A stretch of 56,035 nt of DNA from a virus (IMGVR_UViG_3300045988_113806:1-56035); one strand, 5' to 3'; positions 13,162-48,200 are shown, counted from the first letter of the stretch. Notes: a model not told the origin generated them from the letters alone. Program-made: numbers and translations.

Positions 13162-13755
13162 CTACGAATTGAAGCCAGGAACGTCGATTTCCTGCTCCTC
13201 TTCATCATCTTCCGGATCCCGATGCTCCTCCGCGAATTTGCGTTTTACCCATTCCGGAAGGACGGGGTCTAACTGGTCCTGAAACAGTGTGTATAGCTGA
13301 TAGCTCAGCCATTTGCCCCGGATGTAGTAAAGCGGATTGAAGTAGTAGGACACCACCTTGCTGTGTCCGACTTCAATTCTGCCCCTGGCCATGACTCCAG
13401 CGCGGATCATTTTGGCTACGAAGGTCGAAGCGTAGGTATACGGCATATTGAGATATTCCGCGATATGCTCCACGTTCATACTCTTGTTGGTGTGATCGCT
13501 TCGGTAAACCAGTCTGTTAGTCCCGTTTTCCAGCCTATCAATGAGCAGGTACAAACGGTACGCGTCTTTTGCTGAAACTTCCGGTGGCAGCTTTGCTCCG
13601 GTGAACACACGGACGTAATGCGCCTGGGGACGGAAAAGGTACCCCTGCTTTCTCCGGAAATTCTGGAACCACTTCTTCCGGCTTCCGGATGCAATCACTT
13701 CCCCAGTAGCCTGGTCAATCTCCCGAACTTCCAGGATGCTTTCTCTTTTTCCCAT
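13162..13755 (-). CDS. winged-helix DNA-binding protein (197 aa); putative transcriptional regulator or initiator-like protein, acidic C-terminal tail
   Basis: HTNKSMNVEHIAEYLNMPYTYASTFVAKMIRAGVMAR reads as an HTH; divergent from the plus-strand island; followed by the bidirectional terminator. Confidence 0.45.
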   Translation of the reverse strand: MGKRESILEVREIDQATGEVIASGSRKKWFQNFRRKQGYLFRPQAHYVRVFTGAKLPPEVSAKDAYRLYLLIDRLENGTNRLVYRSDHTNKSMNVEHIAEYLNMPYTYASTFVAKMIRAGVMARGRIEVGHSKVVSYYFNPLYYIRGKWLSYQLYTLFQDQLDPVLPEWVKRKFAEEHRDPEDDEEEQEIDVPGFNS

Positions 13756-13784
13756 CTTTTATGTTCACCTCCCTCCCATCCGGA

Positions 13785-13837
13785 GGTTTAAAGAAACTTT
13801 GAACCTTTTGGCTTTTTGGTTCAAAGTTTCTTTAAAC
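13785..13837. promoter_or_regulatory. 20-bp perfect inverted repeat (GGTTTAAAGAAACTTTGAACC / GGTTCAAAGTTTCTTTAAAC) with 13-nt loop and trailing T-run; operator or terminator-like element in the divergent control region
   Basis: read directly. Confidence 0.6.
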
Positions 13838-14210
13838 TTTTTTCATTGCCTTTGAAGCAAGGCTGCATCAGCTTCCACGGGCTGTTTTTCCGTCTTTTAC
13901 TGGTTGAGAGTCATATACCAATATATAAACGCTCAACCGGAATCCTGCTCAGCTTTGCTTTTTCCCGCCGATAATTCCCGCCTTTCAATCCAAATGATCC
14001 TCGCGAACTAGGGATGCCCAGGCGAAAGGAGGTTTTCACAAAAAAGTCCCAGGCACCCGCGAGGAAAGCACCGGATGGATCATGCTCGGCGACAGCAACG
14101 GTGGTAAAAGAAAAGAGACCTTATAGAGGTCTCAGGAAAGTCGCGTATGCAGTTGAATCCACCCACGGTGCCTAGCTCATTCTAAGCATATATAGAGAGT
14201 CTTGTCAAAT

Positions 14211-14225
14211 CCATTCTAGGAATGG
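14211..14225. promoter_or_regulatory. perfect palindrome CCATTCTAGGAATGG (operator candidate) next to a TTGTCA -35-like hexamer
   Basis: read directly. Confidence 0.4.
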
Positions 14226-14238
14226 CCTGAAAAATAAA

Positions 14239-14285
14239 TTGTAGTCAAAACAGAGATAATTCTTTACACGCCTCCCAATGGGAGG
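14239..14285 (+). promoter_or_regulatory. conserved promoter-plus-hairpin module, copy 1: TTGTAG-N10-GATAAT-N10-CCTCCCAATGGGAGG
   Basis: identical architecture to copy 2 at 15229-15275. Confidence 0.55.
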
Positions 14286-14364
14286 TATTATGTAGGTGTC
14301 AAAATGAAGATATAGTCAACGAAAACAAATAATTTAAAGAAAGGCCTAGAAAGGAGAAAGCATT

Positions 14365-14640
14365 ATGGAAAAGGAAAAAATCATCGACACCATCGAACGG
14401 AATTACAGAGGCAACGCCTACAGGTACTTCGAAGCTCTTTACAGAAGCCACAAAGAAAAATCCGAAGAATGGTGGACACAGGTTGAAATCAGCATCAGGA
14501 TTGTCTGGGAAGTTGGAGAAATCCTCGACAAGATTGGACTGAAGAATCGCAGAAATGAAATCTGGAAAGAAGAAGAAAAGAGCATTAAGGAATACTACAA
14601 AGACTACGATGAAGTCATTCGGCAGCCATTCGACAAATGA
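14365..14640 (+). CDS. hypothetical protein (91 aa), plus-strand island unit 1
   Basis: RBS AAAGGAGAAAG before ATG. Confidence 0.55.
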   Translation: MEKEKIIDTIERNYRGNAYRYFEALYRSHKEKSEEWWTQVEISIRIVWEVGEILDKIGLKNRRNEIWKEEEKSIKEYYKDYDEVIRQPFDK

Positions 14641-14718
14641 AACGGTTCCAGCAGGCATCCATAAAAGCCTGCTTCCATTTGAAAATAATCCACCGCCTAT
14701 CCGAAAGGAGAAAACAAA

Positions 14719-14898
14719 ATGAAAAGAATCGTAAAGTTGAACCAAGGCCATGGTTACAGCAGAGAATACTACCAGCTTGAAAACGGTCAGTATATGCGGC
14801 TCAGCCTGGCCACCGGAAAGTATGGTGTTCAATACACCTACTCTTATTCCCCGGCAGACAAAGAAGAAGTTGAAGCTGCCATAGAATCTGTAAGATGA
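14719..14898 (+). CDS. hypothetical protein (59 aa, MKRIVKLNQGHGYSREYYQLENGQYMRLSLATGKYGVQYTYSYSPADKEEVEAAIESVR)
   Basis: manual translation; RBS AAAGGAGAAAACA 5 nt before the ATG; under 60 aa so absent from the track. Confidence 0.5.
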   Translation: MKRIVKLNQGHGYSREYYQLENGQYMRLSLATGKYGVQYTYSYSPADKEEVEAAIESVR

Positions 14899-14912
14899 AA
14901 GGAGAAAACATC

Positions 14913-15179
14913 ATGAAAATCAAAATCACCGAAACCGGAAAAACCTTCTGCCATGCTCTTGTGAATCTCAACGGATCCTGCATCCTGTTCTGCCTGGATA
15001 AGCTCCCTGGCAGCCAGGTCCTTGAATGTATGGCTTTCAAGTCCAATGCCAAGGCCCAGGTTAAACAGCATGACTGGGGACATGAGCTGTACTGCCACCA
15101 GTTCCCGGCAGGAACTCCCATCACGGAAGAACTGCTGACCATGTGCATCTACCAATACGCGGATCGCCAGCAGGCATGA
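14913..15179 (+). CDS. hypothetical Cys-containing protein (88 aa from the MKIKITETGK start); the track ORF begins at 14895
   Basis: RBS AAAGGAGAAAACA repeated before ATG 14913. Confidence 0.5.
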   Translation: MKIKITETGKTFCHALVNLNGSCILFCLDKLPGSQVLECMAFKSNAKAQVKQHDWGHELYCHQFPAGTPITEELLTMCIYQYADRQQA

Positions 15180-15192
15180 TTCCCTGGTTCCA

Positions 15193-15228
15193 GCCGACTC
15201 CAATCAAAAGTCGGCCTCCAATTTTAAA
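15193..15228 (+). terminator. putative terminator after island unit 1 (GCCGACT/AGTCGGC stem + T-rich run)
   Basis: read directly. Confidence 0.45.
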
Positions 15229-15275
15229 TTGTACACAGATTCTAGATAATTGTTGATTTACCTCCCATTGGGAGG
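15229..15275 (+). promoter_or_regulatory. conserved promoter-plus-hairpin module, copy 2: TTGTAC-N10-GATAAT-N10-CCTCCCATTGGGAGG
   Basis: same spacing as copy 1; the hairpin pairs a CCUCC anti-SD-like arm with a GGGAGG SD-like arm. Confidence 0.55.
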
Positions 15276-15311
15276 TACAATGGTGACAGTAAAGAAAGGG
15301 AGGAAACGACA

Positions 15312-15737
15312 ATGAAGAAATATGAAATCCTGGGTACGGAAAGCCAGCTTGACGGGCTGGATGGTGAAGTGATCCATGTAAAGGTGGACGGCATGCCTCT
15401 GGACATCGCCTATCAGTGCGGCTACACCGCCGACTTTGAACCCTTCCGGATTGATCCTCTTGATGAGTCCGGAGACTATTGGTTCTGGGTGGACACGGGA
15501 GACGGCAGCTTCCAGTACGAAAACGTCCTTCCGGATTGTCTCGATGACGATACCTTCCAGGCAATTGTGGAAGAAGCCATTCCCGATGTGGGCTGGAGTA
15601 AAAACGACTTCTTGACAGCCCTGCATGAAGCCGACATTAATCCCTATGGCCCGGATGAAGTCATTGAAGCAGCCAAGGGGAAATGGTTGAACGGTGAACC
15701 TTTAACCAGCGAAGATGAAGATAAAGAGGAGGAATAA
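15312..15737 (+). CDS. strongly acidic hypothetical protein (141 aa, Asp/Glu-rich)
   Basis: ORF track; preceded by a 10-codon uORF (MVTVKKGRKRQ) whose stop overlaps this ATG. Confidence 0.55.
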   Translation: MKKYEILGTESQLDGLDGEVIHVKVDGMPLDIAYQCGYTADFEPFRIDPLDESGDYWFWVDTGDGSFQYENVLPDCLDDDTFQAIVEEAIPDVGWSKNDFLTALHEADINPYGPDEVIEAAKGKWLNGEPLTSEDEDKEEE

Positions 15738-15740
15738 ATC

Positions 15741-16061
15741 ATGAAAACTATCGCTATTTCCACACGGACCTACAAAACCTGTGGGGATGAATTGCAGGAC
15801 GTTCTGGGCCTGGACATCACCATGGAGGAAGCCGTGAAACGGTGTGTGCATAACTGGAATTGCCTTGTTCAGCAGGACCAGAAAAACACGAAAGATTTCT
15901 ACGTATCCATCGCCCAGATACCGGATACCCCCATTGATCCCGATGATGGTGTTGTCTATGATTACTACGACAAGTCCATCGTTCTCCCGGAAAACTGGGA
16001 GAATGACGCGGAATCAGAGGACGTAGTAAAGGACGGAAAGCTGGTGGCCTTAAATGTCTAG
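15741..16061 (+). CDS. acidic hypothetical protein (106 aa)
   Basis: ORF track. Confidence 0.5.
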   Translation: MKTIAISTRTYKTCGDELQDVLGLDITMEEAVKRCVHNWNCLVQQDQKNTKDFYVSIAQIPDTPIDPDDGVVYDYYDKSIVLPENWENDAESEDVVKDGKLVALNV

Positions 16062-16233
16062 TAAAATTCAGGAGGCCCGCAAGGCAGCCGGCTTAACCCA
16101 GGAAGAAATGGCCGAGAAGCTGGAAATTCCGAAGTCCACTATTGAAAAGTGGGAGATGGGAATCCGGATCCCGCCGCCCTGGGCTGAAAAGCTCATAGTC
16201 GAAAAGCTCCGGAGGATGAAGAAGAGAACGTAA
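16054..16233 (+). CDS. small HTH (XRE-like) DNA-binding protein (59 aa, MSSKIQEARKAAGLTQEEMAEKLEIPKSTIEKWEMGIRIPPPWAEKLIVEKLRRMKKRT)
   Basis: manual translation; canonical HTH ...GLTQEEMAEKLEIPKSTIEKWE...; absent from the track. Confidence 0.55.
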   Translation: MSSKIQEARKAAGLTQEEMAEKLEIPKSTIEKWEMGIRIPPPWAEKLIVEKLRRMKKRT

Positions 16234-16235
16234 AG

Positions 16236-16274
16236 AAAACCCTGGTGGAATTGACCACCAGGGCATTTTTATTT
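16236..16274. terminator. convergent/bidirectional terminator (CCCTGGTGG aattga CCACCAGGG + TTTTTATTT)
   Basis: 9-bp perfect stem read directly. Confidence 0.75.
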
Positions 16275-16772
16275 CGTCAGTTTGAGTCCGTAGGGAGTCG
16301 GTTCTGCCAGTCCTAGCTGCACCGCAAACAAGGCCGCGTAGTAAATGACTTCTTTCCGATATGCGTAGTACACGCCGTGCGTGATATGCAGGTCTGTGCA
16401 GGTCCTTCTCCATAAGTCCCTGTCACAGTACCTGGAGCGGTAGAAGTCCCCAGCCTTGCCTGTACTAGGCAGAAATCTCTGTTCCACCGCCTTCACAACT
16501 TTCAACCACTTCTCCGGATGCCTAAGATGCACCCTTTCCCTGGCTCCGGCGATAAAGGGCCCGAAGGGAACATCAACGGCAGTAACGGGAGACAGCAGCC
16601 GTATAGCCTTGATGGCAGTCGGATCAGATACCCGGCAGTGTCCGCTCCCCATGCCGCCCGTATGCCCCGCGCCTCCAGCACCCATCTTTGCTTCCAGGAC
16701 GGCAGCTTCAATCTGGGCCCGGTACGTGAGGCAAAATTCTATAGTATCTTCGGCCTGGCTCAATGCCACCAC
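16269..16772 (-). CDS. putative RinA/ArpU-like late-gene transcriptional activator (167 aa)
   Basis: last gene of the early operon; C-terminus DFYRSRYCDRDLWRRTCTDLHITHGVYYAYRKEVIYYAAL resembles the RinA-family C-terminal HTH region; weak. Confidence 0.35.
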   Translation of the reverse strand: MVALSQAEDTIEFCLTYRAQIEAAVLEAKMGAGGAGHTGGMGSGHCRVSDPTAIKAIRLLSPVTAVDVPFGPFIAGARERVHLRHPEKWLKVVKAVEQRFLPSTGKAGDFYRSRYCDRDLWRRTCTDLHITHGVYYAYRKEVIYYAALFAVQLGLAEPTPYGLKLTK

Positions 16773-16778
16773 CTCCGT

Positions 16779-17186
16779 TCATTTTGCTGCTGAAGCCTCC
16801 CTGGTCTCCCGGTTCCGCAGCATCTTCAAGCACTCGATGGCCTTGTCCAGGTCCTGGAGGCCATTCTTTTTGGGATAACGGTAGATGTACTTCGCCGCGC
16901 AGCCGATGAGATAAGCCTTGATACCGTCCTGGCCCCGGCAAAGTTCGTCTGCAATATCCACGCACTCCATGCCGCCACGCCAAGTGTAGTGGTTAGGCCG
17001 GTGGATCATATCGCTTTTTGGGTCGAATGGGGGTCTATCGGAGGTACATTCAAGATGTCCTTCCGGGATCACATACCAGTCGTTCGATAGCATATCCGCT
17101 TGACTTGCCAGCCAACCCACTTGTGTTCCGGATTTTCCGACAAAACAATGGCAGCGTTCTCGCTGGTCTCGTAAAAAGGTGTGCAC
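16779..17186 (-). CDS. DUF3310-like phage protein; the true start is probably the internal Met near 17093
   Basis: PNHYTWRGGMECVDIADELCRGQDGIKAYLIGCAAKYIYRYPKKNGLQDLDKAIECLKML is the DUF3310 pattern. Confidence 0.5.
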   Translation of the reverse strand: MHTFLRDQRERCHCFVGKSGTQVGWLASQADMLSNDWYVIPEGHLECTSDRPPFDPKSDMIHRPNHYTWRGGMECVDIADELCRGQDGIKAYLIGCAAKYIYRYPKKNGLQDLDKAIECLKMLRNRETREASAAK

Positions 17187-17359
17187 TTGCAGTCGTTGTT
17201 TTGATAGCTTATGTCAGTGGCCAGCTCGATGTACTGGTTCTTTCCGTTCCAGCGCGTCCTGGCACAACTGCCGCCAATTTTCACAATCTCCAGTGCCTGG
17301 CCAAACGTCATTTTAGTGTTTCTCATTTTAATGCTCCTTTTCTTCCTCAAGCTGCTCAT
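17069..17359 (-). CDS. hypothetical protein (96 aa)
   Basis: ORF track. Confidence 0.4.
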   Translation of the reverse strand: MSSLRKKRSIKMRNTKMTFGQALEIVKIGGSCARTRWNGKNQYIELATDISYQNNDCKCTPFYETSENAAIVLSENPEHKWVGWQVKRICYRTTGM

Positions 17360-31085: not shown

Positions 31086-31541
31086 ATGCCGCGTAGCAAG
31101 CTGTCTAAGTTTGAAATTTCATTACGTGAACAGATTTCCAAGAATCTAAAAAACCTGTCTGCTGGTTTAACACAGAATGAACTGTCAGAAAAGACGGGCA
31201 TCCCCACTTCTACCTTGTCGGGATACTTTGCTATGCGGTCAACACCAAATGCCGGGAACGTACAGAAAATAGCAGATGCACTTCATGTAAAGAAGTCCGA
31301 TATTGACCCGCGGTTTTCTCCAGAATTTATAAATGAGGATCAGCAGCTCAGCCCGCAGGATGAAAGAGAAATTGAATCTGACCTGGAAGATATGATGAAC
31401 TCCGTTTCTTCTGCTGCTTATGAAGAAGGGGCAGATATTGAAGATATTGAAGCCTTCACCGCTACCCTTAAAGCAGCTATGATTCAGGCTAAAAAGATTG
31501 CCAAAAAGAAGTACACTCCCAAAAAGTACCGGAAGGAGTGA
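31086..31541 (+). CDS. CI-like XRE-family repressor (ImmR-like)
   Basis: LTQNELSEKTGIPTSTLSGYF...GNVQKIADALHV; followed by the ImmA gene. Confidence 0.75.
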   Translation: MPRSKLSKFEISLREQISKNLKNLSAGLTQNELSEKTGIPTSTLSGYFAMRSTPNAGNVQKIADALHVKKSDIDPRFSPEFINEDQQLSPQDEREIESDLEDMMNSVSSAAYEEGADIEDIEAFTATLKAAMIQAKKIAKKKYTPKKYRKE

Positions 31542-32321: not shown

Positions 32322-33881
32322 ATGGCTCAAAGATGTGTCATATACGCGCGCTATTCGTCCGATAGACAGCGTGAAGAATCCATTGAAGGGCAGATAAGGG
32401 TATGTGAAGATTTCGCCCAGAGAAACGATTTAGAGGTCATACAGACCTATGTTGACCGTGCTCTTACTGCCAGGACGGACAGACGTCCGGCCTTCCAGCA
32501 GATGATTTCCGACTGCAAAAAGAGACAGTTCGAGTATATCCTGGTGTACAAGCTGAACCGTTTCAGCCGGAACCGGTATGACAGCGCCGTGTATAAGCAC
32601 AAGATTGCCCAGTACGGCGTGAAAGTCCTGTCTGCTATGGAACGTATCACGGATGATCCGTCCGGTATCCTGCTGGAATCTCTGATAGAAGGGATCGCGG
32701 AATACTACAGTGCAGAACTTGCGGAGAACGTACACCGGGGCATGACGGAAAATGCCCTGGAGGGAAAGGCGAACGGCCGGGCCCCTCTGGGATACAAGAA
32801 AGGCCCGGACGGGAAACTGGTCATTGATGAGCGAAGTGCGAAGGCCGTTCGTTTCATCTTTCAAAGTGTGTTGGAAGGCCGGACCCTGAAGAAGATAGCC
32901 GGGGATCTCAATGCTATGGGATATAAAAATTCTTTTGGCCGTCCATTCGCCTCCAGCAATTTCGGGAACCTGCTCAGGAATAAGAAGTATATTGGAATCT
33001 ATCACTGGGGGAATGAAGACGTTGAAGGCGTAGTTCCTCCCATTATTGAGCGGGCAGTCTTTGATAAGGTCCAGGAGCTTATAGAATCCCGAAAGCACAA
33101 GAGTACAAGAAAGAGAGTGGAGAACTACCTTTTAACTGGCAGAATGACTTGTGGCCTTTGTGGGGCCGCCTACATCGGGAAAAGCGGGACTAGTCACACC
33201 GGGGCACCATATGCCTATTACTGCTGTTCTAATCGCGTACACAGAAAAGGATGCAAGGGAAAGAACTACCGGCAGGACAAGCTGGAAGAATGGATAGCGA
33301 TGGAGACATTGAAGGCCCTTAACCGGCCGGAGACCATACGGCAGCTGGCCAAACAGATTATCCGAATACAGGAGGCGGCAGCAGGCGAACCGGATCCCGT
33401 TGTAGACAACCTGGAAGCGGAATTAAAGGACTATAAAAAGCGGGTGGCAAATTCCATTAAAGCGATAGAGGCCGGAGTCATATCGGAAACAATCTCCAGA
33501 AATATCACAGAGTATGAAGAAAAAATTAAGGCCCTGGAGAAAGAGCTCTCCAGGGCAAAACTGAAACGTCAGCCATTCACATTGACGCAGGATCATATTG
33601 AATTTTTCCTCACATCTTTGCTGGCCGGTGATCCGGCAGATGCTAAATACCGCAGCCAGCTCATTGACACCTTGATAGCCGGGGTGGTTATTTATCCGGA
33701 CAAAATCGAAGTGTACTACAAATACCAAAAAGAACTTCCTTCACTCCGGAATCCGCTCACGATTTCAGAAGAAGGAAGTTCGAATGGGAAAAAGTTGGTG
33801 GGCAAGGTTCACCTCAGTGCGAACCTTGAAATACGGATCGGGAAAGGCTGGTTCTCCATCGTCTATCCTATTGCAGCATAA
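32322..33881 (+). CDS. int: large serine recombinase (integrase)
   Basis: YARYSSDRQ catalytic serine motif; recombinase domain; zinc ribbon CGLCG...YYCCSNRVHRKGCKG; C-terminal coiled coil. Confidence 0.9.
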   Translation: MAQRCVIYARYSSDRQREESIEGQIRVCEDFAQRNDLEVIQTYVDRALTARTDRRPAFQQMISDCKKRQFEYILVYKLNRFSRNRYDSAVYKHKIAQYGVKVLSAMERITDDPSGILLESLIEGIAEYYSAELAENVHRGMTENALEGKANGRAPLGYKKGPDGKLVIDERSAKAVRFIFQSVLEGRTLKKIAGDLNAMGYKNSFGRPFASSNFGNLLRNKKYIGIYHWGNEDVEGVVPPIIERAVFDKVQELIESRKHKSTRKRVENYLLTGRMTCGLCGAAYIGKSGTSHTGAPYAYYCCSNRVHRKGCKGKNYRQDKLEEWIAMETLKALNRPETIRQLAKQIIRIQEAAAGEPDPVVDNLEAELKDYKKRVANSIKAIEAGVISETISRNITEYEEKIKALEKELSRAKLKRQPFTLTQDHIEFFLTSLLAGDPADAKYRSQLIDTLIAGVVIYPDKIEVYYKYQKELPSLRNPLTISEEGSSNGKKLVGKVHLSANLEIRIGKGWFSIVYPIAA

Positions 33882-36224: not shown

Positions 36225-39200
36225 TTACTGTGCAAAATTCATCAGCGCGTCATTTGATTCACGGAACTTCTTGGAGCCCGTCTTGGAAACACGTTCATTG
36301 AAGGAGCTGTTGCGCTGATTTCTGTATTGCTTCAATTTCTTGTTGGTGATTCCAAACTCTTTCATCTTCTGAACGTCTTCTGCCGTTCTCGGTTCTCCAG
36401 CTTCTTCCTTGTCCAGCAGGCTCCGGATGAATCCCTGCCGTTCTTCCTGCAATTCGGATTGTCTCTGTCTTTTTACCTGGGAAATGTCGGAGTTGATGGA
36501 TTCGTCTGCCAGCCGGAAACCTACAGCCTTAACAATCTTGTCATAGGTGCTGTCCAGCCCGCGCATGGTCCGTCCTTTTTTGTCTACGGTTTTTCCCAGA
36601 AGAACCTGTGCATAGTTGCCCAGGGCCGGAGAGAATCCTTTCAGCACCTGCAACGGATCATTATTATGGATCCCGATATACATCTGCGTGATAGTGGAGA
36701 GGGTAGGTCCGCCCAGAATATCAACCAGGGTGCTTTTAGGCGGGAGGATGAAGTCGCCCATACCGAACCGCTGAGAAATGTCAATGTTCACGGGCCGGGC
36801 AGCCAGCAGTCCGTACATGGCAATACGCGCCAGGCCACGCCCGATTTCACTATCGCCAGCAGCATCCATAATGGCCCCTTTGATTTTCAGCTTGTAGTCG
36901 ATCCCCAGGATTTGTTTAAACAGATCATTGAACCAATCAGTCACAGGAACCTGCATAACACCAGCCAGGAGGAAATACATACCCCAGAATTTCAGAGCTT
37001 TTCCTTTGGGTCCATTAATCGTAATGTCGTGCATCAGTTCCAGTTCCTTCACTTTGTATTTCTGGAATTGGAGCATCAGGTCCCCGATAACGGACCCCTG
37101 CACTTTCCGGAACGCTGCCGGAGCATCAACGGGGCTGTAATCGAAGTTGGACTTTCTGTTGACCATTCTGGCATATTCAATAGCCTCGTTGTAGTTCTTT
37201 CCTTCGCTGATAGCATGGTAGAAGCCGGAGAGAGCTGCCACCTTTCTGGAATAGGTATCGAAGAAGGAGAACACTCCCATGGTCTTGCTGAGAAGTGCGC
37301 GCGGTCGGAAAGCGGTATAACCACCGGCCCCTGCGTCCAGACGGATGTCATCCTGGATACCGCAATCATGCAATATCCGCATATCCTTGAAGCTGGGACG
37401 GAGTGCATGGCCTCCAGCTTTCAATGTTGCTTTCATATCACCAGTGATACCATAAGCGTTGACAATCTGCCCCAGGTTCAGCAGGGCGGAGGAGACATTG
37501 CAGAAGCCCAGCTTGGCAACGGAAATAGTGGAAGTAATACGGTTGGTCAGTTCCAGGGCAGCCCGGTCCCCAAACTTGGAAGATACAAAATCACGCCAGA
37601 AGGGGATACTGTTCAGCCATTCATTGATTCTCATTTCAATGCTGTTCGGGTCCCCGTTTACATCGTTGATGTAGTCCTTGACGTAGTGGGCCAGCTGGTT
37701 GTCGTTATAGTCCTTGTTCCAGGCCCCGAAATACCGCTCAAACAGGGAAATGGAACCGGACTTGAAGGGCTCCAGTGCGATATAGCGGGATGCCGCGTTC
37801 AGGTAATGGTGCAGTACCCAGTCAATGTTTTCTTCAAAGCCCAGGGCTCCTTTCCGCTGTAGGAAGTTTCCGAAGAAACGATGCCGGTTTTTGGTTTTCA
37901 CCTTGTCTTCCAGAAATTCCCGTGCTTCTTTCATGGTCATATTGAGCTGATCTTCGCACTTCTTAACCATCTCGAAATACTGACCGTCGCCGATTTCCAC
38001 GGCCCGTGCGTGTTCGTTGTCTCCAAAATTGAAGGACTTCGGGGCAATGGTCACATTATCGGCGTATTCAGGATGCTCCTTGATGTAGGCTTCTGCTTTC
38101 TTGTAAGCATCCTTGATATTCCGTCCGCTGCCAACTACCACGTTGTTCCCGTTCTCGTCTTTAGCAATTACAAAGAAGTCATGGAAGAAGTGAGGAATGT
38201 AGCCTTCCAACTTATGAATGTCGCCGCGGCGTTCTTCATAAACAACCTCATAGTTCTTTCCTTTCTTTTCTTCGGAAAGCACCTGGATGTTCGGATCACT
38301 TTTTAACTGTTTCAGCATTTTAGCGTCAACAGTATCAGTTGTTTTCCAGGTCTTTGACCGTTTGTAGGTCACAAGGTATTCATGCTCCAGGCTGCCTTTC
38401 TTGGCCGGGCCTCTATCTTCCAGACGGGTAATGTCCGCAAACTTATCCTGCATCAGATTTTTCAGTTCCGGTTTGGTCATGCGCTTCTGAATGGTTTCCA
38501 CGTGATTCCGGGTTTCATTGAGCATATTGTACACATGGTTAATCATGGCCCTGGTAGCGCTGTAGGCGTTGGCTACGTTCTCAGCTACACCCATATCCTG
38601 CAAATCTTTTCGGCTGTATTCCTTGCCTTCTGCATCGCCCTGCCACAAGAGGTTGGCCCAGTCCTGCACATCCTGTTTAGAATGGAGGTACAGGTGGTGG
38701 ATCCGGTTCAGCTGTTTGTTGAACAGGTTCCGCAGGTGTTCTTGGGTTGCCTGTGCTTTTACGGCCATTTTGAAGAAAGCCGCAAACCGTTTCACGTGTT
38801 CAGCGATATAAGACGGGGACCGGAGCAGGCTCTGGGTAATGCTCATTTCCCGGACTACATCGTTCACAGCTACCTTGATTCGTTCGTTCTTGTCGCCTTT
38901 GAGCTTGGTTTTCAGGTTGTCAGCTGCGTTACGGACAGAGAAGGCAACGTCGTCGGTTGCAAGATCATCCATGGACCATACTGCCTTGTCATTGGGGTTG
39001 AAGTCCGGATTCTTGGCAATAATAACATTGCCTTTTCTGCCAACGTCCTTGAAATAGTCCTGAATTTCTCCCACGTATTCGGAGGTTTTCATGTTGTTCT
39101 GGTAACTCTGCTGCTTTTCGGTAGCATTTCCTACACCGCTTCTGTCCCCTTCATAAATCTGGAAATAGGCAGTGCCGTCTTTCTTCAATGCCTGGGCAGC

Positions 39201-42200
39201 TTGCAGAATAACACATCTTCTCCAGGCGGGTTGTTTGATGGTATTCAGGACGTTGGCAACGGTTACTGTATCCGCCTTCCCTTTAATGGCCTCCAGTGCT
39301 TTATCATTTTCTTCCTTAGTCCGGTAATATGGATCAAAGACAACGTTTTCCACGCCGTGTTTTTGTTTCAGATAGTCGGTCGTCACGTTGTATTTTCCGC
39401 CGCCGATATCGATGTTTCTCGTTCCCTGCTTCCAGGGGATGGTCTTGAACATGGCCGGGACCTGCTTCGGAGAAGTCTCTGCATCGTATTCCTGTTGCTC
39501 AGCCGTATTGGAAGAATGGTTAGAGGCGGCGTTCATAGCTGCATCATTGATTTCCGCAGAACGATTCCATACGTTCCCTTCCGCCACTTTGCGCATGACG
39601 TTGTGGACGTTTTCAACTCCGGTCAGGATGGCCTTCGCTTTGCTCACAAAGTCGTTGACTTTCTGGAACAGCTTCCCGTAATAGGATCCTTTCCCTTCGG
39701 TGCGCTGCTTCTTCCATTCCTTGTAGCCGTCTGCCATAGCTTCGCTTACCGTCTTTCCTCCGGTGTGCTTGCTATAGTATTTGGTCATGGCCGCCTTTTC
39801 CTTGTCATTGAGGGCCATATCCCATGCTGCATGGAAGGCTTCATGGTACGCGGATCCAGTGCTGCTTTCCTGGGAAAGGGCAATAACGGCATCGCTGTTC
39901 AGGGTAGGCTGCTTGTAGTAGCCTTCTACCACGATGTTGTCAGCATCCGCCATTCCATGTTCTTTCCGGGCCTTCTTTTCGGCCTGTTCCCCTACAATGA
40001 TGTTCTTTTGCAAGTCAACGGTGATGGTCCCGGCTGCTGTCTTCACTTTCATTTGAGAGTCGTTAATATCACTGATTTCTGACTGAGGGAAGGCATCACG
40101 CACTTCCTGCTTCAAGCTGTCCAGGGAGCGCTGGATATTGGTATCGGAGGATTCATTGTTCTCATTCAGTGAATCAGCGTAATCAGTTTCGGTTGGACTG
40201 GCAGAAGCGTTTTCTTCTTCACGAACGGAATACCGCTTGCCATCATCGGATAAACGGTCCGGCATACTGATATTTTCCAGATTATCAAAGAGTTCGTTGA
40301 TAGAATCGCCAGGAAGGTCGAATGTTCCATCAGCAAGGGATGCTGCCTTGCTTCTCAAGTCCGGGTCGGAATACTTGTCAATAACAACAAGTTTGGTTCT
40401 GACAGCGGTTCCAGCCCGTTTAAAGGTAATATCAGGCAGATTGATGGTTGCCATAATGACGCCATCTCTAACACCTCTGTCCTGCCACCGGCTTGCGTCC
40501 GGATCGCCATTGAACCATTTGTCGAACCGTTTGTTGGCGGCCGGTCCGTCCGGGATAATGGCAATCAGACGGCCTCCATCCTTTAAGTGCTTGTAGGCTT
40601 TTGCGACATGTTCTATTGCGGTCTTGCCGCCCAGCCCGAACGGAGGATTCATAACAATTCCGTTGAACTTATTGTGCAGGTCCATCAGCTCAAAACCGCT
40701 CTTAAAGAGCTTAACGTTGTTGACGTTGCGCATAAGGCGTGCTTGAAGAACGTTGGAAGGTTCAACAACGGTATTGGAAGTGTTGTTCGGCATCCACCTA
40801 GCAATAGCGCCGTCACCGGCAGACGGTTCCAACAAGCTGTCTCCGGGCTGAGCATGAAGCCATTCAACCATCTTTTCACCCAGAGGTTCCGGAGTAGCAA
40901 AATAATCAATGCCTTCCCGGCTTTTGGCTCTGGCATCTTTTTTTTGTTTCCCGAAATAGAACGCCTTGGCACGGTCAAAGTCATCCATGGTTTCCTGCTG
41001 ATAGTCGATTTCCTTGCCGCCTGTACCTTCTGTTTTACTGCCCGGCAGATACTTTTTCCAGTCATCGCTGTCCTGTGATTCTTCATAGGCTTGCACATAG
41101 GAATTTTTCAGAGCTCTGGCGTTCTCGCCCATGGCAAGGTTTTCAACCGTCCCCGCGCGTTCTGCCACCTTCTGCGCAAATGCCATTTGTTCGAAGTTGG
41201 TTCCAGTATTCAAGTACCGGAACAGGGCATTGGACTTGTTACCGAAGCGGTAAATACGTCCTTCCTGCTGAATAGCCTCACTTGGTTTAGTAGGCAGGCC
41301 CAGGTTAATGAGGACTCTCTGGTGCTTGCCGGTCGTATCATGGAGGGAAATACCAGCCTGCCCGGCATCGGACTGAACAAGAATGATCTTAATCGGGCTG
41401 TCATCGTTGTTAAACGCTTTAATGGCCGCGCTTCTTTCCTTTTTGGAAAGGGTGCCATTGTAGATTGCAATACTCTTTCCAAAAGCGTCACTCAGTGTCT
41501 CAATGGGAGATTTCAGAGAGGAAAGTTTCAGATGAAGTAAATCCGGTCTTTCGTTAATGAAACTTTCATATTGCCTGGTTAATGCAGCTTGTCTTTCAGG
41601 TTCGATTTGAGAAAACGCTTTTTCCGGGAGGATGAAAGGATTATCCGCACCGCCTTTGTTAAAGTTATGGAAAACAACAACCTTTTTTCCTTCTTTAACG
41701 TAGTCTTTGATGATGGGAATAGTGCTCTTTGCCTTGATTGCCTCCAGCAGATAGAATCGATAGAATCCACGGAAGCGCTGGTTCAGAACGTCCGCAAGTG
41801 CATCATACTTTTGGTAATGATCGCTCAGCCAATTAAAACCATCGTCAATCTTTTTGCCTACACCGGCATCCACACGGATGAAGCCGCGGTCATAGTCATA
41901 GTCGGAAGAAAGCATCCGGCCATGGAGTGCTCCGCTTTTCATCATCTTTTCGTTGAAAGATTGTTCCATGACGGTGGAATCCACATCTGCGCCAGGTCTG
42001 TTCAGCTGATTGTAGCGCATACTGTAGCCGAAATTCTCGATATAGAATTGCTGTTTCCCGTTCGAGCGGTTATACCCCTGCTGCTCCATGGGGCCGTAGT
42101 CGCTGTAGTTGAACAGGTATCCGTTGGCATAGTCCAGGTCATTGACATACTGGAAAGGCGTTGCGGACAGGAAAAGGGCCTTGGATTTGGGGCGTTTCTT

Positions 42201-45200
42201 GTACAGTTCTTCTTCCTTGCGGCGGAGCTTATCGTATTCGTTATATGCCTTGTTGTAGGCATCTTCCTTGTCCTTGATGGCCTCTCTCAGCTCTGCCAGG
42301 GTTTCTCCGGGGTTCAGCGTCCTGCTGGCAAGGCGGGTTTCGAGTTCGTTCAGCTCGTTTCTCTTATTGGTAATATCTTCGTATTCTTTGGTGTATTTAT
42401 CTTCAAAGTATCTATAGAATCCATCATCGTGGGCGGACATGGCTCTTACGGCGTTCAGGGCCTTTGTGGGTTCGGCTTTTGCACCGCTCATCAGTTTGTG
42501 GCTTTCGTCACAAACAATCAGGTCCCAATTCCGTTTGGTAATTTCCTTGTTCTCACCAGCATTGGCATAAGTGGTGGTAACGGGGCCTTTCCCGCTGTCC
42601 GTTGTATCTGCCAGCCGGGTCAGCTTGATACCGAAGCTCTTTTTAGCTGCTTCTTCCCAACCTTTCAGAATATCGTCAGAGGGTGCCAGGACAATGACGT
42701 TTTGTTTTCCTGCATCATAAAAGCGCTTTACAACACCCATGCCGGTGTAGGTTTTCCCCGTCCCGGTGCCATTGGTGAACATCATGCCATTGGCTTTTTC
42801 CAGACGGTCCTCGGCCAACATAACATCGTTGACCTGCTCCGGCGCAAGCATTGGAAGCGCTTTCTTCAATTCATTCAGTTTTTGGTTGATCTCTTTTTCC
42901 TGAGCTTTGGTTACAGGGCTTTCATGCTTGGGTCTGTCTTTAACAGATTTAACAAGCTCTTCAGGTCCTTTTCGTCCATCATCGGGAGCTCCTGCATAGC
43001 TATCTGCAATGCTTCCTGGTAGTTTAGGACTTCCGGCGCGTCTATCTTCGGATTTTTCAGCTTGTACTGTGCTATTGCCAGTCTTTCCGCCAGCAGAGGT
43101 GCCACTATCTGAAACGCTACGATTGCCAGTTCCGTGTTCTTCGGGTCCTTCTCCTGTCTTTTCACGATTTTGTCCGCTTCTTCCATCGGATCCGGAGCCT
43201 TGAACACGACTTTCCCCCATTGTGTTTTCACCGGGCCCTTTGCCAGCTCGTGGAGCCACTCCGGGAACGCTGCTTTTAACATTCTTTTCAGCCCCTTTCT
43301 TGCCAGTTTCTTCTGCTTTCATTATACCATTTTCCGGTTTCCCGTTGTCTTTGTTTTGCTTGGTTTCGCTGGCAGTAACCTTCTCGCCTTTATTAGCTGC
43401 CTCGTTTCTGAGCCCTTCATAAAGATCATGAACATAAGGCTTCATGGCGGTTTTTAATGCGTTTCTTTTGTTGAGCAAATCTGCAAAGTCATCAATCGCC
43501 TGCTGATTCTTTTGGTCATAGGCAGCATTGTAAATGTCAAGTGCTTCTTCTTCCGCACCGCCCAGCATGCCTAATTCGAAATCTTGTTCAGTGCTATTCT
43601 TTGCTACTATTGCCAAATTCTTATCCGCACGCAGATTATCTCTGATTTGCTTGATTCCTTTGTCGAGAGAATAATCTTTCAGCAAATCTTCATAGGGCTT
43701 TTTAGCTGTTTTCTTCGCTTTCTCCTGGGCTGGAGCGGGGGCCGCTTCTTCCTTTTGCTTTTCTTGAACCGGTTTATTCTCGATTTCGGGTACGTCTACC
43801 GCGTCATGCCTTGCATCTTTCAAAAATGCGTCACGGTCTGCATCCGTATTGAATACCCATCCGCGTTCACCGCCGAATTTAGAATAATGGCCCTTGTGCT
43901 CTTTGGCCAATTTATTTGCTCTTTTAAATTCTCCATTGAGAACACTATACCCTTTTTGGATACCAACACGGGCCCAGGTTCGGCCGCTTCCGCTGTCGGT
44001 TACGGAGTCGGAAAAATAGTGGTCATTCCCATAGCGTTGCTGTTTTGTATCTACGGCTGGTTTGGCTTCCGGAGCAGGTTTGGTTTCTGCTTCTACAGCC
44101 GGTTCTGCTTCCTGCTGGTTTTCTACTTTAGCCGTGCTGAGTGCTTCTTCCTGGCTGTTTGCTGTCTGGCTGGCTTCCGTTGCACCGCCTGTAGTATCAT
44201 TCGCAGCATTGGCTGTAGAATCTTCTGCCCCGACTTGGGCCTTTTTCCATTCTGCATAGCCGTTCATGAAAGCCATCCTGGAATTGTAATAGGTGTCCGC
44301 CAGATCATCAGCCACACCTTGCGCTCTGCTTGTAAAGTTGCCCCAGTCTGTGTCGGGTGCTTTAAGCGGGCCATATTGCGGATTCATCATGACGGGGAAT
44401 GTATCTTTATATGCCTCTTTGAAAGTCGGGAACATATATTTTCCTACAATCCCTCTATTAATCGGGTGCATGTTGAAAATACCCGCTTTAGTGTCTACAG
44501 CCAGCTTCTTGATTTTTTCAGGAGCCTGCTTATCAAAGTCGCGAAGGTCAAACTTCATGGTACGTTTAACCAGCTCATTCTTTTGCTTCAATGCTTTGTC
44601 AGCGGGTCTGACCATGCCGGTAACATAAATATCGTTGCCGAACACTTTTGCCGTCTGCTTATAGTCATGATTAATGCCCTGGAAGCTGTACTCAAAGTCG
44701 GGTTTTCCTTTGGGAGCTTCCTGCACTACCTCTCCGGCTGGCTTATTGTTGACGGCTTTTTCAGCCTCCGGCTTTACGTCTTGTTCACTCTTTTCACCAG
44801 GATTCCCGGCTTCGTCTGCTTGAACTGGTTTGCTACCTTCAGCAGGAACTTCATTGTCTTCGGCTGTATGTCGTTCACGTGCGTTGCCGTTTTCACCTTC
44901 TGGATTTGCGCCTTGTTCAAGTTCGGGGTTGAGATCTTTATCCCCTTGTTCAGCGCTACTTTCCTGCGGTAACTGCGTACCCGTCTGCCCCAAAGCATAC
45001 TTTTCAGCATCCCCTTTCATCACATGGTAGGAATAATCCACTACATCAATCGGCTTGATTTGGTCCGGTGTTACGCCTTCATCCTGGAAGAGTGCGGTAG
45101 CATCTTCTTTCGGATTCCCCAACTGATTGATGATGTTGGCCATTGTCGTGAAAAATTCTGTGGTATTCTTGCTTCCACGTCCGCTTTCATCCACAAATTG

Positions 45201-48200
45201 CAGAATGGCATGGGCTTCGGGAGAAAAATCCGGAAGCAGGGCCTGCTCCTGTAAATAGATACTCAGCTTGGTATTATTCTTGCGCAGGCCATCCAGCCGG
45301 TTCCCCGCTTCTGCAATAGGACCGGTTACATTGATATTATACCGCATACCGTCCTGGATTCTCTTGTTTAAAAGAGCGAAAACAGGAGAAACCTGCACCA
45401 TAGAGGTGGTATAGCTCTTAATAGGGCTGTCGGTATCCATGGTAACAAGGTTCAGTAGACGTTCACTGCCGTCACCATAGGCCATAGCGAATACAGCATT
45501 GCGGGCGCGTTCCACTCCTTCCTTGCTGGGTTCCATTCGGTCATTCAGGAGCGGGTTCAGCTTATTGGGATCACCGCCCGTTATATCTTTCAGGACAGAA
45601 AGAACATAGTCGTTTGCATTGGCTGTGGTAACCAGGGAATGAGAAGTATTGTCGATGAATCTTTCAAGTGTGGAATCCTTGACCTTTTTAGAGTCAAGCA
45701 CAGCCCGTTCGGCTGCGTTCATTTCAGCTCCGCCGACTTTGGAGATAATAATCTTTTCCATCTCGTCCGGACTTGCGTTGACTTCTCTAACAAGGACAGG
45801 GTTCTTCATCTTATCAACAGCAGCAGGGTTCAGTCCCAGTCTTTGGGCGTTCGCTTTCAGGGCCTTCTTATAAGCCGCGCCCCTGCCGTTTCTATAGGCC
45901 GCCTTGATCCCCATGGCGCGGCCATTCCCATTCAAGACAATTCCGTTGGAATTGACTACGGGCGCGCCGGTATTAATCATCTGACTGTCCATCAGTCTGC
46001 CGGGGTCCAGCTTATTGGAGATGGAAATAACCTGCTGACGCATGGTAGCATTGTTTCTGTCTCTGGGCTGGAACTGGGAAGGATAGGCCGGGTTCGTCCG
46101 GATATTCATTCCGCTGTCCGTATCGTGAGAAACTACCAGGTCGTTGGCATCTGCCAGCCGGTATTGTGCTTTGTATTTGGTCTGATCGTCGCTTTCGATG
46201 GTTGTAGTATTTCCTCTGGGGCTATTGGCATACCGCTGTTCCTGTGCGCCAGAATTAGTTACAGGCGCGTTTTCCTGCATACTGGAGGGATTTACCGTGC
46301 TACTGCTTTCCGTGGCCTGTGCGGGTGCCTGGGGAGCCTGCTGGAGCATTTTAGGTTGCTCACGCACCATATCTTCCAGCGCTTTCCGGTCCCATTCGCG
46401 GATTTTACTGAACAGGTCCGCCGCCTTTTGGTCCCCCTGCATAGCACGTTGAGCCAGGTTAATAAGGCCGTTGCTGTAGCCGTTGGGGTTATTGACCGTA
46501 CTCACATTGTAGGGGGTGTATACCTGTCCCATGAAAGGACGGTGAATAAACGGGATCCGGTTCAGATTCTCGAACGTGGGGAGGGTTCCCTTTTTCTTTT
46601 GGGCAGTCGTGGTTGTGGTAGCAGTCTGTTTCTGGACTTGCGGACCGGCAGCCGGACTTTTCAAGTTGCCGTTTGAAAGGCCCATTTCGTCCCGGAGCTC
46701 AGAAAGGATACGGTTGGTTTCTGCGTCCTGAGCATCATTCTGTTTCTTGACTGCATTATAAACGGATTCAATGACGTTTGGATTCTTGCTGGTCAGTGCT
46801 TCATCAATGGCGTTGTTCAGGTCCGGATCATCAAACTGGCGCTGATTCTCTTTCAGGTAATTCAGCTTGTCCTTGGTGTCTTTAGCCGTGGTGAATACAT
46901 CTTCAATCTTACTGGGGTCATTGGAACCAAGAGCATCATCAATGGTATCCTTCATTCCAAATTCGTCAAATTCCCGCTGATTCTCTTTCAGATAATCCGT
47001 CATATCCTTCAGGGAAATACCGCTGACGGTGCTGCTTACACCGCCTCTGGAACGTCTATTGCTACCTCCGTTGTAGTTGGTGAAATCCAGGTCCAAATGG
47101 CCGCCTGTGGAATTGGGAGAAGGATTTTCGTATTCGTCCAGAACTTCAATCCCGCGCTTCTCGCACTCTTCGATGAAAGCATGGCGCTTTTTAGCATCGT
47201 CCAATACACCGCCAGACACATCCAGCTTCACACCGGCATAGTGGGAATGAGGGCCATCCGCATGGACTCCGGAATCGTTGCCGGACGTAACGGTCAGGGG
47301 AACGCCAAAAGTGTTGTAGTACACATCGGCAATATCCGCCAGGCCCGCTTTAGTAACATCCTGCACGTTTTCCACGTCCACGGAATCATCCAGCCGGTCC
47401 CAGGTTTTTCCTTCTGTGTTCACCATCATTTCAGGAGTAAAGGAAGAAACAGCAGAGGAAGAACCACCGCCGTTCTGCATCTTGCTCATGACAGAGGCTA
47501 CATACTCATTGACAGAAGGGCCTGTGCTTTGAGGAGCATTGAAAGAGTATTCGTTACCTTCATCATCAATCCCGGTGGTCAGACCTTCGGCGTAGCGTTT
47601 ACCATTCTGTTCCCCTGCGTACCAGGCAACAGCAGCACCCTCCGGGCCGTAATCCCGTACATACTGTTCCAGCTTGTGCTTTGCGGTGGCGTTGTAATCA
47701 TCCACGTTGTTCATATCGCCAACATGGCCTAACGCTTCCGTGGACCATTCTTCCCAGTTGGAGGGGAGAATCTGCATGGATCCGTATGCACCGGTGGAGC
47801 TGTTGACTGCTTCCGTATCCCCGCCGCTCTCCTGCCCGGTAATCGCGCTGGCAAGGTCATCGGTCAGGCTGGAAATATCTTCACCGGAGGAAGCCGGGGC
47901 GGCTGCTTCTTCGTTCTGAGAAGATACCGTTTCTTCCGGTCCTTCGGTTGCGGTGGTGTCGATGGTTTCATCGAGAGCGCTGCCACTAGGCCCGTTGTTA
48001 TTATTCTCAGGCCCGCCGTTTTCGGGAGTGGGTCCGTTTTCATTCGGATCATTGGGATTAAAGTCTCTGGCATCAACATCATTGACATCACGGTCAGCCC
48101 ATCTCCGGGCAATACGGCTTCCCAGGGCACCCGCACCACCGAATAACATACCAGGACCCATAGCGGCCATAGCTTCGTCTTTCTGGCCTTGTGTCCATTC

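Follow-up and report, generated by a model that had tools for sequence, protein, structure and literature searches.

We have analyzed a stretch of viral DNA of 56,035 nucleotides (IMGVR_UViG_3300045988_113806:1-56035), which we call the window. An island at positions 14239–16274 contains six open reading frames (ORFs) in the plus strand, the rest of the window being mostly coded in the minus strand. This island appears to be an accessory cassette of a temperate Acidaminococcus phage, controlled by its own repressor in the same way as operons formed by anti-CRISPR (acr) and anti-CRISPR-associated (aca) genes. We give this interpretation a probability of about 0.78, the function of the cargo in the window being inferred. 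An initial annotation of the sequence had described an odd 'promoter-hairpin' module, present in two copies. It most likely corresponds to an ordinary sigma-70-type promoter with a repressor-binding palindrome in its spacer, a predicted operator. The two plus-strand units of that annotation (14365–15179 and 15312–16233), under one repeated regulatory module, are confirmed, and the ORFs are found at these positions.

The cassette would work as follows. The sigma-70/sigma-A polymerase of the host would transcribe unit 1 from a promoter P1 (TTTACA-N17-TATTAT) and unit 2 from a promoter P2 (TTGATT-N17-TACAAT). The palindrome CCTCCCAWTGGGAGG would be a DNA operator placed in the spacer, not an RNA hairpin. 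A 59 amino acid helix-turn-helix (HTH) protein of the XRE type, coded by the last gene of unit 2, would bind both operators (O1 and O2), probably in the form of a dimer, occluding RNA polymerase. A burst of island expression would be expected when the phage enters a cell free of repressor. Accumulation of the HTH protein would then shut down the island, acting in cis on unit 2 and in trans on unit 1. The cargo proteins, which are small, fast-evolving and partly very acidic, would most likely be inhibitors of host defence.

Two promoters with a palindrome in the spacer

The palindrome has 15 bp and is found exactly twice in the 56 kb, at 14271–14285 and 15261–15275, with conserved flanks. A plain consensus scan for −35 and −10 hexamers places a plus-strand promoter with a 17 nt spacer around each copy. 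P1 has a TTTACA −35 box (14263–14268) and a TATTAT −10 box (14286–14291), with 10 of 12 positions matching the consensus; assuming the standard distance between −10 and +1, transcription would start near 14298. P2 has TTGATT (15253–15258) and TACAAT (15276–15281), with 9 of 12 matches and a predicted start near 15288. The putative operator O1 (CCTCCCAATGGGAGG, 14271–14285) is an exact match which fills the P1 spacer up to the −10 box; the same placement is found in 18 aligned modules. The putative operator O2 (CCTCCCATTGGGAGG, 15261–15275) is also an exact match, placed by the alignment of modules. Boxes similar to TTGACA and TATAAT, 16–18 nt apart, as recognized by sigma-70 or sigma-A, are present in both window promoters and in their relatives, where TTGCAA or TTGACA is found 17 nt from TATAAT. 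Both window copies, and every relative, have an inverted repeat overlapping the promoter, as acr-aca operons do.

An AT-rich element, TAAATTGTA-N12-AGATAATT, precedes P1 (14236–14262, plus strand) and includes the sequence TTGTAG...GATAAT. It is common to both window copies: TTGTAS-N10-GATAAT is found without changes at 14239–14260 and 15229–15250, ahead of each palindrome. In the closest relatives, the L003 and L080 loci, GATAAT is changed to GAAAAT or GAAAAC. The whole element is absent from the modules of L004 and L090–L094, which have T-rich tracts instead. It is possibly similar to an UP element. TTTAAA-N16-GATAAT was also considered as a conserved promoter and rejected, it is only acceptable at the second copy: The equivalent −35 box in the first copy and in L003 is AATAAA.

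A possible third operator at 13772–13786 (CCTCCCATCCGGAGG, two mismatches) was discarded. Its centre and spacing are different, and 1.7 matches with three or fewer mismatches are expected by chance. This sequence immediately precedes the ATG (13755) of a minus-strand gene coding for a protein of 197 amino acids, and on that strand it would form a 5 bp hairpin which overlaps GGGAGGGAGG, similar to a Shine-Dalgarno (SD) sequence. We consider it unrelated to the island.

Related loci

Relatives were gathered through a scan of the IMG/VR database for the palindrome, through scans anchored on the HTH protein, and through look-ups anchored on a cargo protein of 106 amino acids. Eighteen modules from 13 loci could be aligned. 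The −35 box, the 17 nt spacing, the palindrome and the −10 box are conserved in this alignment, and the boxes are usually nearer to the consensus than those of the window. Examples are cgcTTGCAAta-CCTCCCAATGGGAGG-TATAAT and, in general, TTGCAA or TTGACA followed by N17 and TATAAT, the −10 box being either TATAAT or TAGAAT.

The relatives differ in their distance to the window. L089 is essentially the same phage, found on a 139-kb contig. L003 is a syntenic phage with a partly different cargo and a single module, TTGACT-ca-CCTCCCAATGGGAGG-TAGAAT. The L004 and L090–L094 loci have other backbones and HTH proteins which are 64–69% identical; in them, one, two or three modules of the form cgcTTGCAAt(a/g)-(C/A)CTCCCAATGGGAGG-TATAAT are found in tandem. 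L004 and L090 are found next to the host gene uvrB, and a deletion remnant, L005, adjoins lpxB. All loci anchored on the HTH protein (at least 49% identity) have either a module upstream or a clear deletion remnant. The initial annotation had proposed a search for its 47 nt module in this genome and in related phages. The frame formed by the promoter and the palindrome does recur, conservation of the TTGTAS and GATAAT boxes is limited to phages of the window type.

Some cassettes are decayed. In L080 (5440–5520), which belongs to an Acidaminococcus metagenome-assembled genome (MAG), a deletion has taken away the operator and the −10 box, together with the first ~40 codons of the gene for the 106 amino acid protein, the MKTIAI family. 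In L005 (3691–3860) and L097, the HTH gene has lost its 5' end and is joined directly to a promoter-operator in which one arm is mutated.

A regulator which co-varies with its site

The operators can be divided in two classes, each with its own type of HTH protein. In the 59 amino acid protein of the window, the recognition helix is PKSTIEKWEMGIR. In class A, to which the window belongs, a third helix P-K-S-T-I-E-K-W is paired with the operator CTCCCAWTGGGAG (CTCCCA-W-TGGGAG). In class B, a helix P-x-R-T-x-x-D/E-W is paired with CACGCAWTGCGTG (CACGCA-W-TGCGTG). Class B includes L081, L082, L095 and L096, whose HTH proteins have 49–53% identity, and L102 and L103, found through the cargo protein. 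Their promoters have the same architecture, with (G)CACGCAWTGCGTG(C) in the spacer. There is no exception to the pairing of helix and operator among the loci examined. A search of the literature for the operator CACGCAWTGCGTG returned nothing relevant.

The matched pair is also replaced around near-identical cargo. L004 and L090 (class A) share genes for proteins of 137 and 208 amino acids with L096 (class B), and the first cargo gene is common to L003 (class A) and L102 (class B). Operator and HTH protein co-vary even though they are located at opposite ends of the operon, which is good comparative evidence that they form a cognate pair. Very few residues seem to determine the specificity: S28/K32 in the class of the window and R/D(E) in the larger class.

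Class B is much more abundant. A second scan of IMG/VR was anchored on the operator (pattern CACGCAWTGCGTGNTATAAT) and left the −35 position unconstrained. It detected 73 sites in 71 stretches, and only 2 were found with the equivalent pattern for class A. Instead of the 71 stretches, a few would be expected by chance, according to a rough estimate which assumes a collection of ~10^11 bases. TTG is found at the −35 position in all 73 sites, and the complete TTGACA in 52 of them. In 55 of 72 operator-anchored loci, an HTH homologue is found downstream, in the same strand and within 5 kb. In five others it lies ~190–205 bp upstream of the site, and the remainder are mostly too short to judge.

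These five class B loci (L124, L127, L137, L155 and L159) have the promoter and operator past the HTH gene, heading the next operon. In L114, a second copy of the operator is found upstream of the −35 box, near position 100. Therefore, the design of the cassette has variants.

The 59 amino acid protein (gene at 16054–16233, plus strand) belongs to the HTH_3 family of Pfam (2e-11), in agreement with the XRE-type HTH of the initial annotation. It is probably an Aca-like autorepressor which acts on O1 and O2. Since the palindrome is only found at the island promoters, and the phage has a separate CI-like HTH gene and an integrase, we consider this protein a local regulator and not the lysogeny repressor. 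In a switch of the CI/Cro type, operators would be found at the lysogeny and lytic early promoters; in the 56-kb window the palindrome is limited to the two promoters of the island.

A different protein might bind the operator: the CI-like protein (31086–31541), the 197 amino acid protein mentioned above, which is similar to winged-helix proteins (13162–13755), or a host factor. The 59 amino acid protein might also be an activator. We consider these possibilities very unlikely. The 197 amino acid protein does adjoin the island and has weak Pfam matches of the winged HTH type, and binding by the 59 amino acid protein is only a prediction. On the other hand, the module accompanies the small HTH gene in unrelated backbones, where they are found beside uvrB, lpxB, a serine recombinase or a tyrosine integrase, and it co-varies with the recognition helix of the 59 amino acid family. 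As for activation, an operator which fills the 17 nt spacer of a near-consensus promoter has the geometry of a repressor site. Activation of the MerR type uses spacers of 19–20 nt.

DNA operator or RNA element

The initial annotation considered TTGTAS-N10-GATAAT as a promoter read by a phage sigma factor or activator, and took the palindrome, as part of the transcript, together with two mini-ORFs, for a switch between SD and anti-SD arms. We find this proposal hardly credible. Some of its observations are correct: Both the palindrome and TTGTAS-N10-GATAAT are exactly repeated in the window, the palindromes would form stable folds as RNA (−11.8 and −12.7 kcal/mol), and each copy has an ATG 5 nt after a GGAGG arm. 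The interpretation of TTGTAS and GATAAT as conserved promoter boxes does not hold, they are altered or absent in the relatives, as described above. A special promoter is not supported, since canonical boxes separated by 17 nt bracket the palindrome in every relative and at all 73 sites of the scan, and the module has no linked sigma-factor gene.

The mini-ORFs are present, an ATG-TAG at 14290 and an 11-codon ORF (MVTVKKGRKRQ) which starts at 15280 and has a TGA overlapping the ATG at 15312. A regulatory role is not supported. In both cases the fifth base of the −10 hexamer is the first of the ATG, upstream of the predicted starts (14298 and 15288), so the ATGs are part of the promoter, and they are not conserved: The triplet is ATA in 12 of the 18 modules.

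Dyad symmetry is maintained between operator classes, with 89.8% of cells paired and 15 two-sided changes. The departures in the arms of class A are all one-sided breaks (ACTCCC..GGGAGG, ..GGGATG, ..GAGAGG). Two-sided changes are only found at the switch between classes, where they track the HTH helix. The palindrome lies between the −35 and −10 boxes in every instance, and this places it upstream of the predicted start. Nothing resembling an SD or anti-SD sequence is found in the sister operator of class B, although its position and geometry are the same. A DNA operator is favoured because of all these features: the position between the boxes, the one-sided breaks in class A, the lack of an SD flavour in class B, and the two-sided changes which follow the helix. 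They also argue against the SD/anti-SD switch. A cis-regulatory RNA would be located within the transcript and would have compensatory pairs independent of any protein; the palindrome is upstream of the predicted start, and its class A breaks affect one side only. A search with Rfam gave nothing credible in 13700–16400.

A mixed situation is also conceivable, in which the DNA operator is transcribed as well, either by read-through from P1 past the hairpin at 15193–15215 or from a minor upstream promoter, and the RNA hairpin serves to stabilize the message or as a binding site for the HTH protein. We consider it unlikely, but several data point in this direction. O2 is probably within a read-through RNA, since the hairpin at the end of unit 1 has no U-tract, and TTTAAA-N16-GATAAT scores 9/12 upstream of O2. 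There are also precedents: Aca2 and Aca1 bind hairpins in the 5' untranslated region (5'-UTR) which are RNA mimics of their operators, and 5'-UTR motifs have been predicted in Aca10 and Aca12 operons (PMC13551039). Some relatives of the window have co-varying hairpins just past the predicted start, and some of their stems, GGGAG/CTCCC, match the operator half-site. However, no such hairpins are found in the leaders of the window itself. Among the relatives, the 5'-UTR stem goes with the cargo gene instead of the operator class, GGGG/CCCC being found in L004 (class A) as well as in L096 (class B). At O1 the upstream candidate is a poor promoter, with AATAAA as its −35 box.

These 5'-UTR hairpins are found in L003, L004 and L091–L096, and also in L102 and L103, ~10–45 nt after the −10 box. 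Their stems are GGGAG/CTCCC, GGGAAG/CTTCCC, GGGAGC/GCTCCC or GAGGGG/CCCCTC, followed by an A-rich stretch and an SD sequence. They resemble the motifs reported for the aca1, aca2, aca10 and aca12 operons. We considered them as RNA mimics of the operator and rejected this possibility, their stems track the cargo gene.

Comparison with known Aca systems

The island most likely works like an autorepressed operon of the Aca10 or Aca13 type: It would be a new example of a known design, not a new type of switch. A similar arrangement is found in Listeria, where the N-terminal domain of AcrIIA1 autorepresses acr promoters. This is an HTH acting on a palindrome in an acr promoter of a temperate phage from Firmicutes, with the HTH fused to the anti-CRISPR itself.

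The closest parallel is Aca10, from the acrIC7-acrIC6-aca10 operon of Pseudomonas citronellolis (PDB 7XI5), which binds a dyad of half-sites with a 1 bp gap inside TTGCAA-N16-TATTCT (PMC9410881). In both cases a small single-domain HTH protein (65 amino acids in Aca10) is coded by the last gene in an operon of small genes. An inverted repeat with a 1 bp gap and a CA-T-TG centre is found in a sigma-70 promoter, the Aca10 site being a perfect repeat in a strong promoter and overlapping both the −35 and −10 boxes. The proteins have a common motif, ...GL(S/T)Q...RT..(Q/D)WE.G.R, which includes an arginine equivalent to the DNA-binding R44. A profile built from 20 members of the family matches Aca10 (7XI5) with E = 2.9e-7 (32.8 bits), third in PDB behind two entries which are not Aca proteins, Atu1735 (2PPX) and one named DBP48 (8TAC). 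A profile from three class A sequences only reaches E = 0.0085.

There are also clear differences. Identity with Aca10 is ~37% over 38 residues, according to our own count from the alignment, a relationship only at the level of HTH subfamily. The operator has 15 bp instead of 19–21 bp, the host belongs to Negativicutes instead of Pseudomonas, and there are two or three promoters for each regulator. The Aca10 repeat ATACGCTCA-T-TGAGCGTAT is not found: The operators described here are CTCCCA-W-TGGGAG and CACGCA-W-TGCGTG, and only the dyad with 1 bp spacing and the CA-W-TG centre are common. It is probable that the HTH proteins form a new Aca-like family within the HTH subfamily of Aca10, without being proven members of Aca10.

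Other known systems share parts of this design. In Aca13, inverted repeats are placed between the −35 box and the −10 box (PMC12282945). In the Aca13 and Aca11 operons, found in mobile elements of Streptococcus, the regulator likewise controls an adjacent operon (PMC12282945). Aca13, however, is a C-terminal domain of AcrIIA32 and its regulation is described as bidirectional (PMC12282945). Aca proteins have been predicted to control adjacent operons of small genes through up to three copies of their motif (PMC13551039, NAR 2026), the predicted start being 10–15 nt past the DNA motif and a 5'-UTR hairpin following directly after it (PMC13551039). Relatives of the window have this same layout, the leaders of the window itself lack the 5'-UTR hairpin. 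That study covers Aca1–Aca12 and the newly described Aca14 (PMC13551039), and our family matches none of them, as far as this can be tested. The best NCBIfam matches of the 59 amino acid protein, all below threshold, are with HTH proteins of the XRE family and the MqsA or 'WExG' type (TIGR03830; RstR), which bind palindromes as dimers. It differs from them in that its scores are far below the curated cut-offs, and it has neither a zinc-ribbon domain nor a toxin partner.

The cargo genes

Unit 1 contains three cargo genes in the plus strand. The first (14365–14640) has an AGGAG SD sequence and codes for a highly charged protein of 91 amino acids (isoelectric point, pI, 5.6). The second (14719–14898) codes for 59 amino acids (pI 8.0), and the third (14913–15179) for 88 amino acids, with six cysteines and a near-neutral pI; the start at 14913 is preferred to 14895 because a GGAG SD sequence is found 9 nt upstream. 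Unit 2, in the same strand, contains an orphan gene coding for 141 amino acids (15312–15737, pI 4.1, 37 Asp and Glu residues) and the MKTIAI gene (15741–16061, 106 amino acids, pI 4.2), followed by the HTH gene. Three very acidic proteins had been initially described, only the 141 and 106 amino acid proteins are strongly acidic. The pI of the 91 amino acid protein is less extreme, and the 59 and 88 amino acid cargo proteins are near-neutral.

None of the five cargo proteins of the window has a match in Pfam, PHROG or NCBIfam, and none matches a known family of anti-CRISPR or anti-defence proteins. The 141 amino acid protein only finds its own cluster among 5.8 billion proteins, and its single-sequence AlphaFold model is unusable (pLDDT 50). 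The 106 amino acid protein has homologues in L003, L080, L095, L102 and L103, and its gene is directly upstream of the HTH gene wherever it is seen. It has a confident alpha/beta model (pLDDT 90), for which no significant structural neighbour was found. Sequence searches of PDB with the 106 and 141 amino acid proteins gave no match.

The cargo is hypervariable. In class B cassettes, 99 ORFs located between the operator and the HTH gene form 51 clusters. No Pfam domain is found in 37 of 43 cluster representatives, and the only functional family recognized is the anti-CRISPR AcrIC5. A protein with this domain is coded directly upstream of the HTH gene in the class A loci L093 and L094 (Pfam 1.7e-20), and an AcrIC5 cluster is also part of class B cargo (Pfam 8.4e-22). 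An HTH gene in the same operon as an anti-CRISPR homologue, typical of acr-aca loci, is found in these relatives. AcrIC5 is a validated, acidic inhibitor of type I-C systems with orthologues in Firmicutes (PMC7913775; bioRxiv 10.1101/2025.06.06.658234). The anti-defence or accessory cargo anticipated in the initial annotation is supported by the AcrIC5 homologues and by the variability of the cargo in cassettes with the same frame; in the window itself no such protein is recognized.

Some class B cassettes only contain tiny hydrophobic peptides of 37–53 amino acids: L081 (197–313), L082 (5729–5842) and L118 (near 2109). This suggests that not all cargo is anti-defence.

The frame may well be as we propose and the cargo of the window have another role, such as superinfection exclusion, lysogenic conversion or host takeover. 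This is a serious possibility, to which we give less weight than to host-defence inhibitors. The five proteins of the window lack homology to anti-defence families, the L081, L082 and L118 cassettes code for small membrane peptides, and the cassettes are often found at prophage ends, like morons. Against this, the sole cargo family with a functional annotation is an anti-CRISPR. Extreme turnover within a fixed frame, two acidic proteins and a regulator similar to Aca10 are also hallmarks of anti-CRISPR loci in guilt-by-association searches (PMC9765179).

Phage context and other features of the region

The window corresponds to a temperate phage, with an SU10-type portal, RecT, a serine integrase (32322–33881) and the CI-like HTH gene already mentioned. 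The closest genome match is the Acidaminococcus MAG with the L080 locus, whose HTH protein is 98% identical, and this points to Acidaminococcus as the host genus. No DNA match to deposited phages was found in INPHARED for 13800–16400. For a genome which has ~56 kb or more and codes for an SU10-type portal, a single minus-strand ORF of 4298 amino acids (36225–49121) is unusually large.

The island is closed by a strong, bidirectional intrinsic terminator (16240–16263), with a 9–10 bp stem, T-runs on both strands and a fold of −18.6 kcal/mol (z = −5.2), which is kept in L003 and L080. Each unit had been thought to end in a hairpin terminator, and this is correct for unit 2. The hairpin which ends unit 1 (15193–15215, plus strand, −12.2 kcal/mol) lacks a proper U-tract and is not among the terminators detected by the scan, it is a weak or leaky terminator at best. 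An intercistronic hairpin is found at 14650–14673 (plus strand, −12 kcal/mol, z = −3.05). These two gene ends (14641–14690 and 15180–15230) have common flanks, GGTTCCAGC on one side and (C)TTCCATTT or CTCCAATTT on the other; their stems differ, each of them being internally complementary. In L003, L095, L102 and L103, similar GC-rich hairpins are found between cargo genes. These elements may be the ends of shuffled gene cassettes, or else have a role in processing or stability.

A candidate small RNA is found in the minus strand (14105–14208) and diverges from P1. Its near-consensus promoter, TTGACA-N18-TAGAAT (14208–14179, 11/12), would give a transcript of ~45 nt, followed by an intrinsic terminator, GAGACCtctataaGGTCTC-TTTTCTTTT (14133–14105). 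Its core, CGTGGGTGGATTnAACnGCATA, is kept in L003 and L080 with a different terminator stem (GGAGCTgctaAGCTCC), and it has no match in Rfam. Between this promoter and P1 there is a second perfect palindrome, CCATTCtagGAATGG (14212–14226), which is conserved as CCATTCCAGGAATGG in L003 and as CCATTCCTGGAATGG in L080. It may be an operator for another regulator.

Two genes away from the island, a minus-strand gene (16779–17359) has an N-terminal domain similar to Tad2 (Thoeris anti-defence 2, DUF2829) fused to DUF3310. The gene is intact in L003 (6724–7293, 189 amino acids) and in L080 (6712–7287, 191 amino acids). In the window it appears as two overlapping ORFs, 17069–17359 and 16779–17186, which suggests a frameshift or a sequencing error.

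Discussion

Several points weigh against an autorepressed anti-defence cassette. The window promoters are the least consensus-like of the whole family (10/12 and 9/12), and the conserved upstream element TAAATTGTA...AGATAATT has no explanation in a model based on promoter and operator. Dyad symmetry across classes would be equally expected of an RNA stem, so the case against RNA depends on the position of the palindrome and on its co-variation with the protein. Start sites and repression are predictions. The negative results obtained with the cargo proteins and with the 106 amino acid model, given above, count in the same direction. Finally, some class B cassettes carry hydrophobic peptides or an extra HTH gene, so the frame should be considered as a general accessory-gene cassette, not exclusively devoted to anti-defence.

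In summary, what looked like an odd 'promoter-hairpin' would be a conventional design, a sigma-70 promoter with an operator in the spacer and a cognate mini-repressor. The concept is not new: Autorepression by Aca proteins, operators inside promoters and regulons with several operons have already been published. The interest of the island lies in the orphan cargo of an Acidaminococcus phage and in a large, unnamed family with two specificities. This is a compact family of regulators and operators, and its larger class B is common in phage contigs from the gut.

We suggest, tentatively, that at least one of the five orphan cargo proteins is a new anti-CRISPR or anti-defence protein, the acidic proteins of 141 and 106 amino acids being possible DNA mimics, and that both pairs of helix and operator are orthogonal sets which define an unnamed Aca family. 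We would not consider this proposal as likely at present. Such a protein might act against the CRISPR systems of its host genus, Acidaminococcus, from which the genome-editing nuclease AsCas12a was obtained. If this is true, PKSTIEKW/CTCCCA and PxRTxxDW/CACGCA would be naturally orthogonal sets of repressor and operator, in an Aca family of gut Firmicutes phages with at least 71 loci in IMG/VR. The regulator and its operator can provide a guilt-by-association handle for anti-CRISPR and anti-defence genes, as Aca1 and Aca2 have done, in Negativicutes and other gut Firmicutes, where few of these genes are known.

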